Source of the DNA: Acidimicrobiia bacterium | GTDB taxonomy: Bacteria; Actinomycetota; Acidimicrobiia; Spongiisociales; JAENVV01 | Assembly (NCBI GenBank): GCA_041586155.1 | Contig: JBFHAT010000003.1 | Coordinates: 27,115 to 91,114, forward strand | Reading direction: 5' to 3' | Length of the DNA stretch: 64,000 bases | Shown here: piece after piece, positions 16,500 through 23,278 of the stretch | How the letters are laid out: every line of letters starts with the position of its first letter | Numbering within the stretch: position 1 is the first letter of the stretch | The notes under the pieces: model-generated | Databases searched by the model: none | Told to the model about the DNA's origin: nothing | The model's input: the letters and a program-made list of their open reading frames with translations, nothing else | Program-made: the position numbers and the translations under genes

Positions 16500-16781
16500 A
16501 TGGACGACGAGTTCGATTGGCGATCCCTCGGCGAGTGTCGAAATCACGACCCGGAGCTCTTCTTTTCCGGCTCCCATCCCCACGGTGATGCTGCAGCCAA
16601 GCTCGTGTGCCAATCGTGTCCGGTCCGTACGGAGTGCCTGACATACGCGGTGGTCACCGCCCAGCGCTACGGGGTTTGGGGAGGCGTGGGCGCAGACGAG
16701 CGTGCGCTTCTTCGACGCCGGTACGTCGCTGCGATCCGATCCGGCGCCGACTTCGAGCGAGCCCTGGAAGCCGCCGTCTGA
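16500..16781 (+). CDS. WhiB-family (Wbl) transcriptional regulator
   Basis: Four Cys 'C..C(x)..C..C' ('LGECRNHDPELFF', 'AKLVCQSCPVRTECL') and 'GVWGG' turn. 93 aa. Confidence 0.85.
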   Translation: MDDEFDWRSLGECRNHDPELFFSGSHPHGDAAAKLVCQSCPVRTECLTYAVVTAQRYGVWGGVGADERALLRRRYVAAIRSGADFERALEAAV

Positions 16782-16798: not shown

Positions 16799-17731
16799 AT
16801 GCGAGTGGTTGTGGCCGGGGCGACAGGCGTCATCGGCAGGTCTCTGTTGCCCAAGCTGCGGATCGACGGCCGTTCCGTCATCGCCGTGGTCCGCAGCGAA
16901 GACCGGGCGGAGCAAGTACTCGCCGACGGTTACGACGCCTTGGTGGTGGATGCCGCCGATCCGAGCGCCCTGGAGGAAGCCGTGGTGGCGGCGGCGCCGG
17001 AGGTCATCATCAACCAGCTCACCAGCCTGCCGCGGTCACTGCTCAACCCGATCGCAGCCAAGCGGGCCGCCGACCAGACCAACGCACTCAGGAGGAATGC
17101 AGGTGCGGCGCTCGCTGCGGCGGCCAAGGCCTCCAACGCCCGGCTCATCTCCCAGTCGATTGCATTCGCCCAGCGGCCCGGGGAGGGGATCCGCACCGAG
17201 GACGACCCATTGTACCTCGATGCTCCCGGCGGCCACCGGCCCGTGGTTGAGGCCATCGCCGCCCTCGAGCAGGTGACGCGCTCGGTCGGCGGCACAGTGC
17301 TGCGGTACGGAGCGTTCTACGGTCCGGGCACATACTTCGATCCCGAGGAGGCGTATGGGGTGATGCTGCGCCGCCGGCTGTTGCCCATCATCGGCGAGGG
17401 GCGTGGCGTCTGGGGTCTTCTGCACATCGAAGATGCCGTAGACGCCACCATCAAGGCGATTGCCGGCCCGTCCAGCGTCTACAACATCACCGACGATGAG
17501 CCGGTTCCGGCCTCTGAGCTGCTGCCGTGGTTGGCGGACACGATGGGAACCAAGCCGCCCAGGCGCATGCCTCGGGCAATGTTCTCGACGGGTCCCGCCA
17601 CTGTGCTGCGCTACCTGGTCGACGAGCAACCTCGAGTGTCCAACGAGAGGGCCCGAAACGAGCTGGGTTGGGAACCGAAGCACCCGTCGTGGCGTGAGCC
17701 GCTGGCTCAACTCCTCCAGGGAACCTCTTGA
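16799..17731 (+). CDS. NAD(P)-binding epimerase/dehydratase family protein
   Basis: N-terminal 'VVVAGATGVIGRSL' Rossmann motif. Atypical SDR length. Confidence 0.7.
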   Translation: MRVVVAGATGVIGRSLLPKLRIDGRSVIAVVRSEDRAEQVLADGYDALVVDAADPSALEEAVVAAAPEVIINQLTSLPRSLLNPIAAKRAADQTNALRRNAGAALAAAAKASNARLISQSIAFAQRPGEGIRTEDDPLYLDAPGGHRPVVEAIAALEQVTRSVGGTVLRYGAFYGPGTYFDPEEAYGVMLRRRLLPIIGEGRGVWGLLHIEDAVDATIKAIAGPSSVYNITDDEPVPASELLPWLADTMGTKPPRRMPRAMFSTGPATVLRYLVDEQPRVSNERARNELGWEPKHPSWREPLAQLLQGTS

Positions 17732-17766
17732 CGCCATCCGGACGTTGAAGACGCACGATCCGGTCG

Positions 17767-18313
17767 GTGACCGCGTTTGCGCTCGTGCTTATGGTGGTCG
17801 GGACTTCACCCTCCGCCCGAGCTTGTTCCTGCTCGATGCCGACCGCAGCCGTTATGGCGACACATCACGACGCGGCGTTCATCGGTGAGCTGGACAATCG
17901 TCGGCGAGCCGGACGCGACGATGCAGGCATGGCGCAGGACCGTTTCTCCTTCGCGGTCGAGGGTTGGCTGGATAGAACTGGGTCCGGCGGCGGCGGTGTT
18001 CTCACCCGATAGCGGGGCCGCCTGCGGCATCGAGCCGGCGATCGATGATCGAGCCGGGATCCTCCTGGCCGGCGACGAGGCGGCGTACGAATCGGGCCTG
18101 TGTTCCACACTGGACGCCGCACTTGCCCGGCGTGAGCTCGTGTTGTTGCCTGTGGGTGCCCCACGTGTGTCGATGGCGAGCGCCGAAAGGCAGGCGGTCG
18201 GGCCCGGCGGAATGGAACCGCAGCCTGTCGCGATGGGCATCGGCGGCGGGCACCTGCTGCTGGCCGGCAGCATCGCATGGGCGCGCCGCCGAGCTCACTT
18301 GCAGTATTCGTAG
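17767..18313 (+). pseudogene. secreted TIMP/NTR-module-like protein, reading frame interrupted (frameshift or sequencing error ~17900-18000)
   Basis: Frame 1 gives signal peptide 'MTAFALVLMVVGTSPSARA' followed by 'CSCSMP..AAFIGEL' and stops at 18010. Frame 2 continues with 'AVFSPDSGAACGIEPAIDDRAGILLAGDEAAYESGLCSTLD', matching TIMP N-domain '[25 protein letters not shown]...ITLCDF'. Confidence 0.45.
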
Positions 18314-20826
18314 GGCTCGAAGTCCAACTCCTCGAGGGAGAATCCAGGGATCCCCAGCAAGGGCTCGAGCCATCCCTCCATCGCCGAGACGCTTCCGTCG
18401 GAGGTTTCGACACGAACGGTGTTGATCCACTCGTCCCAGTCGCATCGCTCGGTGTGGTTGGCAGGAGGGCGCAAACCGCCCAGGTCGTTGACGAATGGCG
18501 GTTCTGAGTCGAGTAGGCCTTCTCGGCGAAGCGCGTCGAGCGCCGCGAGCTGGGTTTCGTACGCCAGGGCATTGAGGACCAGATACCCCTCGACCAGGGC
18601 CTGCTCGGCGTTGTCTGACGGCAGAACCGATCCCACCGCTTTGTTGCGGATCTGACCCCACAGAAAGCTGTTCAGCGCTTTGGCGCCCAGCCTGGCGGCG
18701 CCGGTGAGGCCCAGCTTGGTGATGACCATGGTGCCGATGCCGCCGGTGGCGAGCCCCACGACCGCGGCGAAGACGCCTTTGGCCAGTGCGATGGCGGCGT
18801 CGCGTTCTCTCCCGTCGATGTATGAGTTCGTCAGGTACGCGTCTACGGTGATGCCTTCGATGGTGCCCAACTCGTAGTTGAGGCGTGTATCGGCGCCGTC
18901 TGGCGTGACTTGCCCTTGGATGGCCTGATACCGGAACGCCCCCACCATCATGAGGAACAGGTCGGCGACGTCGCGGTCCCGATTGATGTACTCCAGAACG
19001 TTGGCCAGCTGGGCTGGCTCCAGGTGAGCGGCGAGCAGACTTGGGCTCAGCTCCGAACTGGCGCCGCGGCCGCCTTCCAGCGTCAACAACGACGCGAGGT
19101 GCCCTTCCATCATGAGCGGGAGCGCCAGGAGGTAGCCGGGATGGTAGCTGAGCTGGTTGCGATCGAGGCCGGTGATCGTCGTCAAGGCGAGCGCCGCGAG
19201 GGCGACGGCATTGGGGTCGTCGGGCTGCGAACCGAGCGTGCCGAGAGCGGCTGCCATGGCGTCGCCGTCATCGCCGTACGACCAGATCGGCTCCATGAGC
19301 ATCGACCAGCCGTCATCGATCCACGGCAGATCGGAGGTATCGAGCGCGCGCATGTGATCGACGAAGTCGACCACGGCGTCGGGCCCGGCCGCTGCCAGGG
19401 CGCGCAGACCGTAGACACGAAGATCCTCTACCGTGCCCCGGTCGACCGTCACGTCGTACCAGGCATCGAGCGACGGACCTGCTCCCGGGTCCGCCATCGC
19501 CACGACGACCTGCGCCATGTACTCGATCAGGAATTCGGTGTCGTAACGTCCCCAATTGAGGAGCACGGATGCATCCATCCTGCCGCTTCGCCAGTCGGCC
19601 AAGTCGGCCGGCCTGATGGTGAGGCCCGGGGCCTGAGTGGCCGCCGCCAGGGCGTTCCCGAATCCGTCCAGGTGGTTGGCCCAGGCGTAGTCGCTGAGGG
19701 GAACGTATCCGTCGAACGCCCTCATGTATGTGTCAGGGAGACCTGCCAGGCCGTCGGGCCCCAACGCATTGAAGAACGACACGGCGACGGTGGGCTGACC
19801 AGAGAAGTGTTCCATCTGGTCGGCGAGCAGGCCGAGAAGGCCAGCGTCGAGTTCGGCGGAGGCCATGCCGTACAGATCGGCGAGGAGGATCCCGATCGAT
19901 GCGTCGCGCGTTTCGGCCGGTAGGTCGAAGGTGTACAAGCGATCGATCAGCAGCCTGTGGTCCGGGCGTGGCAGCGCTGCCCGAACTTCCTCGACCCAAC
20001 GGATCAGATCCGCGCGCTCCCCTGCAAGCTCGACGAGACGAATGTACGTGTCGTTGGACTGCCACCACGGCAAGTCTGCCTGTGCCTCCAGCTCCGAGCG
20101 GAGGTCGCCGATCTCAACATCGACGCGCGCCAGACGCACGGTCAGCGCCGCGATCGGTGACGACTCCCAGGCGGCCCGGTAGTCGGCCGTGAAATAGTGG
20201 CTTGGCAGACCCGCCTCTCGGGGCGAGAGGCCGCTCGTCATCGCGTCCAGGGCGCGTTGAAAGGTAGTGGGGTCGAACCCGACCTCTCGGAGGGCGATCG
20301 CCAAGTCCTCGAGGGTGCCTTCGATCGAGGAACCGACGTTCACGTAGCGAGCGAGCGATCGGAGCTCGGCCAGGCGATCTTGGAGCGCTTCAACCGATGA
20401 AGCGGAACTCGTGGTCAGCCTTGAAGCCAGCTCGTCCCTGGCGGCGATCATGTCATCGAGGATGGGATCGTTGTCGGACCCTGACCAATTCGCGATCCGG
20501 CGGTCGAGGTCCGCCGAAAGGGCCGCCATGTCCGAGAGGTCATCGCCGGCGAGCGTGTCGAACCGCCGAGGGTCGAAGCTGGGCACCGTCACCACCGCTG
20601 CGATGGGATCGAGGTGCTCGACGAACGCGGCCCGCGCATCCAGGTCGGTTGCCCGATCCCGCAGCTCGCTCACCGTCGTGGACAACGCACGGGTGCTGGG
20701 AGAGGTGACGCCGACCAGAGCGAGGACCTCCAACAGGTCTGACGTGGTGCGGCCGAGATCATCGGCATGTCTGCGCAGCGATCCGGCTCGCAATCGCAGC
20801 TCCGCAGGATCGAGCGCATAGATCAT
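18295..20826 (-). CDS. large hypothetical protein (843 aa), helical N-terminus, one predicted Gly-rich TM segment near residue 690
   Basis: Long ORF with high GC3. No recognisable catalytic motif. Candidate own promoter: TTGACA -35, 16 bp before the start codon, and a TAACGT -10-like hexamer 18 bp downstream of it, ending ~8 nt before the ATG. Confidence 0.5.
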   Translation of the reverse strand: MIYALDPAELRLRAGSLRRHADDLGRTTSDLLEVLALVGVTSPSTRALSTTVSELRDRATDLDARAAFVEHLDPIAAVVTVPSFDPRRFDTLAGDDLSDMAALSADLDRRIANWSGSDNDPILDDMIAARDELASRLTTSSASSVEALQDRLAELRSLARYVNVGSSIEGTLEDLAIALREVGFDPTTFQRALDAMTSGLSPREAGLPSHYFTADYRAAWESSPIAALTVRLARVDVEIGDLRSELEAQADLPWWQSNDTYIRLVELAGERADLIRWVEEVRAALPRPDHRLLIDRLYTFDLPAETRDASIGILLADLYGMASAELDAGLLGLLADQMEHFSGQPTVAVSFFNALGPDGLAGLPDTYMRAFDGYVPLSDYAWANHLDGFGNALAAATQAPGLTIRPADLADWRSGRMDASVLLNWGRYDTEFLIEYMAQVVVAMADPGAGPSLDAWYDVTVDRGTVEDLRVYGLRALAAAGPDAVVDFVDHMRALDTSDLPWIDDGWSMLMEPIWSYGDDGDAMAAALGTLGSQPDDPNAVALAALALTTITGLDRNQLSYHPGYLLALPLMMEGHLASLLTLEGGRGASSELSPSLLAAHLEPAQLANVLEYINRDRDVADLFLMMVGAFRYQAIQGQVTPDGADTRLNYELGTIEGITVDAYLTNSYIDGRERDAAIALAKGVFAAVVGLATGGIGTMVITKLGLTGAARLGAKALNSFLWGQIRNKAVGSVLPSDNAEQALVEGYLVLNALAYETQLAALDALRREGLLDSEPPFVNDLGGLRPPANHTERCDWDEWINTVRVETSDGSVSAMEGWLEPLLGIPGFSLEELDFEPYEYCK

Positions 20827-20858: not shown

Positions 20859-21305
20859 TCAAACGTTTGTCTGGGTGAGGGCCAGGTCGAGCGTCTCCCA
20901 TCCGAGCAGTGCGCATTTGATGCGGACCGGGTACCGCCGAACCCCATGCAGCGCCTCGAGGTCGCCCAAGTAGCGGCCCGGCTCCTCGGGGTCGATCGGC
21001 GCCTGGTCGTCGGATGTCATCATGCGCTTGAAGCGCTCGGCCAGCGCTTGGATCTCTTGGACCGACCTGCCTTCGACTGCCTGTGACATCATCGATGCCG
21101 AGCTCTGGCTGATGGAACATCCCTGCCCGCGAACGGAAACCCCACTCACTCGGTCGCCATCCAGCGTGAGGTCTAACTCGATCCGATCACCACACAGAGG
21201 GTTGTCACCCTCGGCATGGGCGTCCACCCGGTCGAGAGGTTTGCGATTGCGGGGGTTGCGATAGTGGTCGAGCACCACTTCGCGGTAGAGGTCTTCAAGG
21301 GCCAT
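20859..21305 (-). CDS. sufU: SufU/NifU-like Fe-S cluster scaffold (sulfur acceptor)
   Basis: 'NPLCGDRIELD', 'GQGCSISQSSASMM', 'RIKCALLGWETL' conserved Cys ligands. 148 aa. Confidence 0.85.
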   Translation of the reverse strand: MALEDLYREVVLDHYRNPRNRKPLDRVDAHAEGDNPLCGDRIELDLTLDGDRVSGVSVRGQGCSISQSSASMMSQAVEGRSVQEIQALAERFKRMMTSDDQAPIDPEEPGRYLGDLEALHGVRRYPVRIKCALLGWETLDLALTQTNV

Positions 21306-21315
21306 CGAGTTCAGG

Positions 21316-22539
21316 CTAGTGCGGCCCTACTCCAAACAATTCCGAAGCGTGATGCAACGCATCGACCAGTTGGTCGACGTCCTGTTCGTCCGAATATACG
21401 GAGAACGATGCTCGAGCGGTGGCGGGTACCCCGAGGTGATCCATGAGCGGTCGCGCACAGTGGTGGCCGGCCCGCACCGCCACGTGGTGCTCATCCAAGA
21501 TCGTGGCGAGGTCGTGGGCATGCACGTCGGCCAGAGTGAACGAGATCACCCCACCCCGCCGTTCGACGTTGTTCGGGCCGTACACGGTGAGATGATCGAA
21601 CTCGCCGAGACGGTCCAACGCGTATCGGGTGAGCTCCATGTCGTGATCACGAACCGTGCCCATCCCCAGCTCGCCGAGATAGTCGACCGCAGCCCCCAAA
21701 CCGATCGCTTCCACGATCGGTGGCGTTCCGGCCTCGAGCTTCTGGGGAACCGGCGCCCAGGTAGATTCGTAGAGGCCCACATCGGCGATCATCTCACCGC
21801 CCCCCTCGAACGGCTCCAGGGCCTCGAGGAGTTCGAGCCGGCCCCACAGCACGCCGACGCCGGTTGGTCCCAGCATCTTGTGTGCCGAGAATGCCAAGAA
21901 ATCGGCACCGAGCGACTTCACATCCACCGGGGCGTGCGGAACCAGTTGGGCGCCGTCGACGATCAGGATCGCGCCCGCATCTTCTGCCATCGTCCGGATC
22001 GGTCCGATCGATGGGATCGTTCCGAGGACATTCGACATGCCGGTGACAGAGATCACCGCAATGCGCTCGTCGACGAGGTGGTTCATCGCTGCCAGGTCCA
22101 ACTCGTATCGGTCGTCGAGCGGCGCGAAGACCAGCTCTGCCCCGGTACGCGCCGCCACCATCTGCCAGGGCACCAGGTTGGCGTGGTGTTCCATCTGTGT
22201 GAGCAGGATCCGGTCGCCCGGACGGAGACGCGCGCCGGCCCATGCGAACGCCAGCATGTTGAGGCTGGTCGTGGTCCCGCGCGTGAATACGATCTCCCGA
22301 GGGTCCGCCGCCCCGATGAACGCTGCCACCTTGGCGCGTGCGGCCTCGTAGGCTTCGGTGGCCATCTCGGAGAGACGGTAGGCGCCTCGATGAACGTTGG
22401 AGTAGTACGACGAATACGCCTCCGTCATCACGTCGAGCACCTGTTGCGGCTTTTGAGACGACGCAGCCGAGTCGAGGAACGCCAGCCGCGGCCCGGTGCC
22501 GTTCAGGATCGGAAAGTCACGCCTTCGGTCAACCCGCAT
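21316..22539 (-). CDS. sufS: cysteine desulfurase SufS
   Basis: Class V aminotransferase: 'FSAHKMLGPTGVGVLWG' (PLP Lys), 'RAGHHCARPL' active-site Cys loop. Start likely the internal 'MRVDRRRDFPIL'. Confidence 0.9.
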   Translation of the reverse strand: MRVDRRRDFPILNGTGPRLAFLDSAASSQKPQQVLDVMTEAYSSYYSNVHRGAYRLSEMATEAYEAARAKVAAFIGAADPREIVFTRGTTTSLNMLAFAWAGARLRPGDRILLTQMEHHANLVPWQMVAARTGAELVFAPLDDRYELDLAAMNHLVDERIAVISVTGMSNVLGTIPSIGPIRTMAEDAGAILIVDGAQLVPHAPVDVKSLGADFLAFSAHKMLGPTGVGVLWGRLELLEALEPFEGGGEMIADVGLYESTWAPVPQKLEAGTPPIVEAIGLGAAVDYLGELGMGTVRDHDMELTRYALDRLGEFDHLTVYGPNNVERRGGVISFTLADVHAHDLATILDEHHVAVRAGHHCARPLMDHLGVPATARASFSVYSDEQDVDQLVDALHHASELFGVGPH

Positions 22540-23278
22540 GCGTGCGGAACGCGTCGTAGCCATCCTCCTCCAAGGTCTGGGCCAGGTCTGGTCCGCCCGA
22601 GGTCAGGATACGCCCATCCATGAAGATGTGGACGACGTGCGGTTCGATGTAGTCGAGCAGTCGCTGGTAGTGGGTGATGATCAGGAATCCTCGCTCGGGG
22701 GAGGTCAAGCGGCCGATGCCCTCAGCCACGATACGAAGGGCATCGATATCCAGACCGCTGTCGGTTTCGTCCATGATCGCCAGGGCGGGCTCGAGTACGG
22801 CCATCTGTAGGACTTCGTTGCGCTTTCGTTCCCCACCCGAGAACCCCTCGTTGAGGTAGCGGTCGGCAAATCCCGAGTCCATGCCGAGATCAGCCATCGC
22901 CTCCATGACTTTGAGACGGAGCTCGAGCACCGTGTAGTCGATCCCACTCTTGTTCGAGAGCGCTTGGCGAAGAAACTGGATCACCGAGACTCCGGGGATC
23001 GTCTCGGGGTGTTGGAAGGCCAAGAACATGCCCCGGGTGCCGCGGTCATTGGGGGACAGCTCGCCGACGTCCTCGCCCTCGAAGCGAATCGAGCCCGCCG
23101 TGATCTCGTAGGCGGGATGACCCATCAGGACCTTGGCCAGCGTCGATTTGCCAGACCCATTCGGACCCATCAACGCATGAACCTCGCCCCGCTCGACGGT
23201 GAGGTCGACGCCCCTCAGGATGGGGACGCCGTCGACCGAGGCGTGCAAGCCGTCGATCTCCAACAAAGGGGCGCTCAT
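22529..23278 (-). CDS. sufC: Fe-S cluster assembly ATPase SufC (canonical copy)
   Basis: 'GPNGSGKSTLAKVL', 'LAFQHPETIPGVSV', 'FSGGERKRNEVLQ', 'MDETDSGLDIDAL', 'ITHYQRLLDYI'. Confidence 0.9.
   Translation of the reverse strand: MSAPLLEIDGLHASVDGVPILRGVDLTVERGEVHALMGPNGSGKSTLAKVLMGHPAYEITAGSIRFEGEDVGELSPNDRGTRGMFLAFQHPETIPGVSVIQFLRQALSNKSGIDYTVLELRLKVMEAMADLGMDSGFADRYLNEGFSGGERKRNEVLQMAVLEPALAIMDETDSGLDIDALRIVAEGIGRLTSPERGFLIITHYQRLLDYIEPHVVHIFMDGRILTSGGPDLAQTLEEDGYDAFRTHAG

Follow-up and report, generated by a model that had tools for sequence, protein, structure and literature searches.

We analyzed a 64-kb stretch of contig JBFHAT010000003.1 from an Acidimicrobiia bacterium (the window, here always the whole 64,000 nucleotides), in which positions 17767 to 18313 of the forward strand carry two overlapping open reading frames (ORFs) that together resemble a single broken gene for a TIMP-like secreted protein. 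The first ORF opens in frame 1 with a GTG at 17767 (+), runs for 81 codons and is closed by a TAG at 18010-18012. Its translation from the GTG to the TAG begins with the signal peptide MTAFALVLMVVGTSPSARA, continues after the predicted cleavage point with CSCSMPTAAVMATHHDAAFIG and ends in FAVEGWLDRTGSGGGGVLTR before the stop. The whole product is MTAFALVLMVVGTSPSARA followed by CSCSMPTAAVMATHHDAAFIGELDNRRRAGRDDAGMAQDRFSFAVEGWLDRTGSGGGGVLTR, the end of the signal peptide and the mature start reading ARA/CSCS, where the slash marks the predicted cleavage. Frame 2 (+) is open from 17777 to a TAG at 18311-18313 and supplies the second half of the gene from about 17975; its translation includes ELGPAAAVFSPDSGAACGIEPAIDDRAGILLAGDEAAYESGLCSTLD and closes with GHLLLAGSIAWARRRAHLQYS, with a hydrophobic stretch and then RRR near the end. 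Four Cys codons are divided between the frames, at 17824-26 and 17830-32 in frame 1 and at 18023-25 and 18101-03 in frame 2, and the spacing from 17830 to 18023 is 193 nucleotides (nt), or 64x3+1. GC at third codon positions (GC3) shows a periodicity that follows frame 1 as far as about 17970 and frame 2 from about 18000 onward. An earlier note, made by a model from the letters alone, had described this arrangement of a frame-1 signal peptide with CSCS, a shifted frame carrying the partner cysteines and a 193-nt spacing, and its coordinates were confirmed. The features of the locus are as follows.

17767..17823, + strand: start codon GTG and signal peptide of 19 residues, MTAFALVLMVVGTSPSARA, whose AxA site for signal peptidase I comes just before Cys (cleavage predicted from the AxA rule).
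17824..17832, + strand: CSC motif, predicted mature residues 1-3, equivalent to TIMP Cys1-Ser/Thr2-Cys3 (alignment to TIMP-2 residues 1-3).
17824..17973, + strand: frame-1 part of the NTR/TIMP-like domain, CSCS...AAFIG...FSFAVEGWLD (hmmsearch with the family profile A2).
17968..17977, + strand: frameshift site ctggat/agaa, with a presumed loss of GG between 17973 and 17974 that would have destroyed the Gly codon of a K-G-D/E motif (profile positions and repair scan).
18010..18012, + strand: premature TAG ending frame 1 after 81 codons.
17975..18313, + strand: frame-2 remainder with the second half of the NTR domain, two Cys codons, the linker, the anchor and the stop TAG at 18311-18313 (hmmsearch).
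18227..18292, + strand: C-terminal hydrophobic helix VAMGIGGGHLLLAGSIAW, then RRR; a putative membrane anchor or sorting-signal-like tail.

The two halves were compared with a family profile (A2) built from 60 intact homologs, with the window sequence left out. Using hmmsearch, frame 1 matched profile positions 7-77 (40.5 bits, E 1.1e-12) and frame 2 matched positions 81-185 (58 bits, E 2e-17). When all six-frame stop-to-stop segments of the window were scanned, just these two matched the profile (next best E 0.1), and therefore no second copy lies within the window. A search of 5.8 billion protein clusters with the provisionally repaired window protein as query returned four proteins. One of them, P0001 (130 aa, 99% identical), is the frame-2 half alone, as gene callers annotated it in other assemblies. 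The other three, P0002 (198 aa), P0003 (179 aa) and P0004 (188 aa), are intact single-ORF proteins of about 40% identity that hold the ACSC...AAFIG...FAVE and the SP.SGASCGFE...RAGILL...SGLCSTL parts in one frame, and the repaired window protein aligns to the intact homologs ungapped across the junction. Relative to intact homologs the reading frame is thus interrupted and ends early, at the TAG at 18010-18012, as expected of a pseudogene. The proposal that one gene had been split by a net +1 change of frame holds, since both halves match the same family of intact single-ORF proteins. We consider it highly probable that one gene, coding for a bacterial TIMP-like surface protein with an NTR fold, has here lost its function through a frameshift, which makes the locus a pseudogene or, at a minimum, a disrupted gene, and that the break is fixed in this actinobacterial population.

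The position of the lesion could be narrowed considerably. The frame-1 match ends at TGG (17965-67) and the frame-2 match restarts at GAA (17975-77), so that 7 nt span 3 profile positions. All 2168 stop-free single-event repairs within 17880-18011, in which one base was removed or any dinucleotide inserted, were scored against the family profile. The top repair was the insertion of GG after 17973, with 116.3 bits and a product containing FAVEGWLDGELGPAAAVFSP, while the best one-base removal reached 105.3 bits; every high-scoring repair falls in 17968-17977. The Gly restored by the GG insertion is invariant among the homologs (60/60) and aligns with the Gly of TIMP-2 MFKGP. Because re-insertion of GG outscores the best 1-nt removal and restores this invariant residue, the most likely event, judged from the profile scores, would be a two-base loss between 17973 and 17974 that removed GG from the start of a GGA codon for Gly. 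Before that loss the site would have read ctggatGGagaact, as compared with the present ctggat-agaact. An indel between about 17900 and 18000 had been predicted in the earlier note; that range was borne out and is now reduced to ten positions, whereas the predicted size of 1 nt was not, a 2-nt deletion being likelier on these scores.

A break of this kind could also come from the sequencing or the assembly, the true genome then holding an intact single-frame gene, and the earlier note had allowed for such an error. A change of 2 nt (or 1 nt) at one place would be enough to give an intact ORF, and both halves retain a strong GC signal by codon position, as would be expected of an intact gene. 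However, P0001 is encoded on six Logan contigs from six SRA runs (SRR29257478, SRR29257514, SRR29257553, SRR29257308, SRR29257470 and SRR29257429), and these six separate metagenome assemblies of six read sets align to window positions 17700-18330 without a gap, are identical save for one single-nucleotide polymorphism (SNP) and contain the same break. The longest Logan contig is 99.9% identical over 5.3 kb. SNPs relative to the window occur at 18018 (C/T), 19141, 19985, 19987 and 20871, and therefore the Logan contigs are not copies of the window assembly. Additionally, Tandem Repeats Finder detected no tandem repeat in 17700-18400, and the site itself, ctggatagaact, is non-repetitive and not a homopolymer, so that a systematic indel error is not expected. 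Since the same break recurs in six assemblies and no repeat lies at the site, we regard an artefact as very unlikely. The C/T difference at 18018, which separates the window from all six Logan assemblies, turns Ala into Val in the frame-2 half, within the conserved SGA(S/A)CG motif. Such a change would fit relaxed constraint, although only one site is concerned.

The same repeat analysis bears on the suggestion that the gene is phase variable, that is, a contingency gene switched off through slipped-strand mispairing. Surface or secreted proteins are typical targets of such switching, and a GGC-rich stretch lies nearby at 17983-17996. However, the profile puts the shift at 17968-17977, a non-repetitive segment upstream of the GGC stretch, tandem repeats are absent from 17700-18400, and all seven sequences share the "off" state. 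With no repeat tract at the frameshift site, this suggestion was dropped, and we attach next to no probability to it.

Programmed recoding would give the break a function, in that a ribosome pausing at a rare AGA codon (GAU-AGA-A, 17971-17977) would skip one base and continue to a full-length ...EGWLD-ELGP... product. Reading out of frame begins with AGA, a rare codon that makes up 1.2 per 1000 of 2442 codons in neighboring genes, but a rare codon is expected anyway once a GC-rich gene is read out of frame. A Shine-Dalgarno-like GAGGG is present upstream at a spacing of 7 nt, not the 3 nt that is effective in prfB frameshifting. Against the family profile, the protein made by skipping one base still reaches 104.8 bits, yet it lacks the invariant Gly and falls 11 bits below the deletion repair. 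The break is stably maintained in the population; however, the P-site GAU is unable to re-pair in the +1 frame (AUA), and the homologs examined are all single-frame, so none supports recoding in the family. A slippery P-site codon together with a shift conserved in homologs was not found, and judged by these marks the rare AGA is the sole feature in favor. A programmed +1 frameshift is accordingly a slim prospect, and a disrupted gene remains our preferred account of the locus.

The relationship of the family to TIMPs was examined at the level of profiles and folds. Searched against all PDB sequences, the 60-member profile gave 15 matches, all of them TIMP-1, TIMP-2 or TIMP-3, the best being the TIMP-2 N-domain (E 2.9e-6), aligned from Cys1 to residue 115. 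When the family alignment, headed by the repaired window protein, was compared with TIMP-2 residues 1-115 in hhalign, the probability was 94.3% (E 1e-7). In Foldseek, the model of P0002 placed TIMPs at all of ranks 1-17, with agrin NtA and two more TIMPs among ranks 18-23; metal-binding OB proteins were among the weaker structural matches. The predicted fold is a five-stranded OB barrel with flanking helices and is closest to known NTR structures. Sub-threshold PF00965 matches (E<1) were found for 18 of the 60 members, with a best value of 9.5e-5, and a precomputed PF00965 hit exists in 4 of 84.

Specific residues follow the same pattern. The mature N-terminus is Cys1-(Ser/Thr)2-Cys3 right after the predicted cleavage, in the window ...SARA/CSCS. 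By alignment, the Cys of SGA(S/A)CG corresponds to TIMP-2 C72 and that of SGLCS to C101, and both codons are present in the window in the other frame; the disulfide partners are predicted to be equivalent to TIMP C1-C70/72 and C3-C99/101. The kinship to TIMP/NTR proteins proposed from the sequence alone is therefore upheld by a signal peptide directly before CSC and by the profile, hhalign and Foldseek matches to TIMPs. Likewise, the hand alignment of SGAACGIE...SGLCSTLD to SSAVCGVS...ITLCDF of TIMP-2 is the same as that obtained with HMMER and hhalign, with C72 and C101 as partners. The TIMP likeness could instead be convergent or generic to the OB fold, in an unrelated secreted OB protein such as a metal- or ligand-binding module using an N-terminal Cys-x-Cys. 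This is hard to square with PDB matches confined to TIMPs and in register from Cys1, and we judge it improbable. The family is genuinely, if remotely, homologous to the TIMP N-domain/NTR module, and for the window protein the homology to TIMP is apparent at the profile and fold level only.

TIMP-like NTR proteins had been called rare in bacteria, which is wrong for this family. Using HMMER with a three-sequence profile on 1.84 billion cluster representatives (clusters at 50% identity), we recovered 4056 proteins at E<=1e-3 and 1118 at E<=1e-10. Hosts include Actinomycetota, Gaiellaceae, Acidimicrobiales, Chloroflexi, Blastococcus and an Opitutus metagenome-assembled genome, and the source names seen are all "hypothetical protein". 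Among the 60 homologs, the AxA preceding the mature N-terminus is nearly invariant (Ala at position -3 in 57 and at position -1 in 59), as are Cys1 (59/60), Ser or Thr at residue 2 (58/60) and Cys3 (59/60). The partner cysteines are present in 60/60 and 59/60, and 54 members have exactly four Cys. A hydrophobic run occurs within the last 45 aa of 47 of the 60, these tails being hydrophobic helices with basic ends, and the AlphaFold2 (AF2) model of P0002 (pLDDT 85.7) predicts a helix at 170-193. The GlyGly-CTERM model matched the window tail weakly (E 0.27), and in part of the family the tails show a weak similarity to sorting-domain models of NCBIfam that in no case reaches the curated cut-off (GVDTG_CTERM in 7/60 with a best E of 0.0022, LPXTG-type and others). 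For the domain itself, the NCBIfam scan of the 60 homologs showed that no model exists.

Long forms of 440-600 aa make up about one third of the top 150 family representatives (P0027 and 55 others, alignment A6) and were also seen at L007 1499-2851, L008 136-1467 and L009 4647-6371. Their order is a TIMP-like domain, a seven-bladed beta-propeller and a C-terminal transmembrane (TM) anchor (AF2 pLDDT 89). The model of the long form matched G-beta/WD40 and TolB in Foldseek, and the motif SPDG..LA is present; Pfam assigned no family to the long forms. Tandem family genes were found on a 3.27-Mb contig (L016 3288-3917 and 4001-4618), the upstream copy scoring 67.5 bits and the downstream copy 186 bits against the family profile.

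The nearest characterised relatives of the family are the N-domains of animal TIMPs and stand-alone NTR modules. With animal TIMPs (TIMP-1 to -4, N-domain; PF00965, MEROPS I35) the family shares a cleavage (here predicted) just before Cys1, the C-(S/T)-C N-terminus, the aligned C72/C101 cysteines, the K-G motif and the OB barrel. TIMPs additionally have a six-Cys C-terminal domain and a third N-domain disulfide (C13-C124/126 type), both of which the family lacks. Unlike TIMPs, the family is bacterial (Actinomycetota, Chloroflexi and others) and carries a C-terminal membrane anchor or sorting signal instead; most of its members fall below the Pfam threshold, their inhibitory activity is putative, and in the window the gene has a frameshift. 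Stand-alone NTR modules, such as agrin NtA, PCOLCE NTR, the meteorin C-terminal NTR and complement C345C, are usually internal or C-terminal and so lack a free N-terminal Cys, and most are not protease inhibitors; a free N-terminus of the TIMP type is retained in the bacterial family.

Among bacterial proteins, just one described as "TIMP-like" was found in the literature, Tim of Listeria monocytogenes (LMRG_00714), which resembles the family in being located on the bacterial cell surface and in having a fold predicted to be TIMP-like (PMC8235301). Tim is a lipoprotein with a lipobox, while the family has an AxA/CSC site and sequence-level TIMP homology. Tim always adjoins its metzincin Mtz, which cleaves Tim, whereas no adjacent protease was present in the family loci seen. 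The authors of the Tim paper found no earlier record of bacterial TIMP-like proteins (PMC8235301). The literature consulted on TIMP evolution treats TIMPs as a metazoan invention, and bacterial homologs are not discussed in PMC4860685, PMC9409782 or PMC10755359.

On the basis of the family, the intact ancestor of the window gene would have been exported by Sec and cut after ARA, leaving Cys1 with a free alpha-amino group. The mature protein would form a five-stranded OB barrel with two disulfides (C1 to the SCG Cys and C3 to the LCS Cys), and the C-terminal helix with its RRR tail would tether it to the outside of the membrane. In intact members, the N-terminal Cys-Ser-Cys ridge may enter the active site of a zinc metalloprotease, where the amine and carbonyl of Cys1 would chelate the zinc. 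By analogy with TIMPs, inhibition or regulation of zinc metalloproteases is the most likely activity of intact family members. In the present genome, the presumed loss of GG would shift the frame, and translation from the GTG would end at the TAG at 18010. The truncated product would be a mature fragment of about 62 residues that lacks both partner Cys, half of the barrel and the anchor. The downstream (frame-2) half has no signal peptide of its own. Because the exported half is truncated and the downstream half has no export signal, the gene is regarded as non-functional.

A wider proposal is that the gene in the window represents a true prokaryotic TIMP that has decayed and that the thousands of bacterial AxA/CSC proteins are surface-tethered inhibitors or regulators of zinc metalloproteases, acting via a TIMP-type N-terminal Cys wedge. 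Such prokaryotic TIMPs would come in two forms, one short and membrane-anchored and the other long and fused to the seven-bladed beta-propeller. We put this forward tentatively, as a possibility that we consider less probable than its opposite. At L019 2422-4176 a HypA gene and a CbiA/ParA-type (HypB-like) gene immediately precede an intact member, and at L018 214-1556 only a CbiA/ParA-type gene was seen upstream. These HypA/HypB-like neighbors are a possible hint at a metal-related role rather than protease inhibition, although the hint comes from one protein cluster.

Several observations weigh against the interpretation of the locus as a frameshifted member of a TIMP-like family. The six runs have neighboring accession numbers and probably belong to one study, so that they speak for reproducibility and not for breadth, and the support for the break comes from assembled contigs rather than raw reads. 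The repaired window protein and both fragments show no PF00965 match even at E<=10 (gathering threshold 23.1 bits); such a match for the repaired translation had been set beforehand as a test of the TIMP assignment, and on this point the prediction failed. In addition, Pfam and NCBIfam gave no meaningful match for the repaired protein or either fragment. The third N-domain disulfide and the C-terminal three-disulfide domain of TIMPs are absent; TIMP-2 C13 is aligned with a non-Cys column, and the barrel is followed by a linker and a TM helix. No metalloprotease gene lies beside the window gene or beside the intact homologs examined, and the contexts of P0002, P0003, P0012, P0017 and P0021 contained no conserved neighbor and no partner protease. 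Finally, no close intact ortholog was found, the nearest protein in the 5.8-billion-cluster search being 41% identical, and therefore the choice between a 2-nt deletion and a 1-nt insertion is decided by 11 bits of profile score. The family alignment, scanned against GTDB, returned 6 distant loci and no close intact ortholog, a GTDB scan with the neighboring 843-aa protein as query returned nothing, and of two metagenome scans for a close intact ortholog one found nothing and the other 3 distant loci.

The surroundings of the broken gene are a housekeeping neighborhood of a GC-rich (~65% GC), WhiB-bearing, actinobacterium-like genome. Upstream lie genes for a fumarase, a WhiB regulator (16500-16781) and an NAD-dependent epimerase (16799-17731). 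On the opposite strand, an 843-aa ORF (18295-20826, -) is convergent with the broken gene, shares its final 19 nt and is followed by NifU/SufS/SufC genes. Pfam assigned no family to the 843-aa ORF, and a peptide-pattern scan of 185,579 GTDB species genomes found no relative of its protein. This ORF is kept together with the locus in L001, where two adjacent nonsynonymous differences from the window (19985 and 19987) occur. The Suf-type Fe-S cluster assembly segment at 20859-23278 (-), an ordinary housekeeping context, consists of a NifU/SufU-like gene (20859-21305), a class-V aminotransferase gene (SufS-like, 21316-22563) and an ABC ATPase gene (SufC-like, 22529-23278). Promoter and terminator scans of 17600-18450 found none, and an Rfam scan of the whole 64-kb window found no family reaching the gathering score.

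The locus itself is ordinary, and the large bacterial family is mildly interesting. The broken gene alone is of little consequence, as it leaves one lineage without one accessory surface protein. The family is unstudied yet already partly tagged as PF00965 in databases, and the copy in the window is one of its dead members; the family represents a known fold, and probably a known mechanism, in a bacterial version. Because the Cys-Ser/Thr-Cys at a free N-terminus, the positions of both core disulfides and the K-G motif are all retained, its members are testable candidate bacterial metalloprotease inhibitors that would bear on the origin of the NTR/TIMP module. If the bacterial proteins do act as TIMPs, the TIMP inhibitory mechanism would either predate Metazoa or have been exchanged between bacteria and animals.
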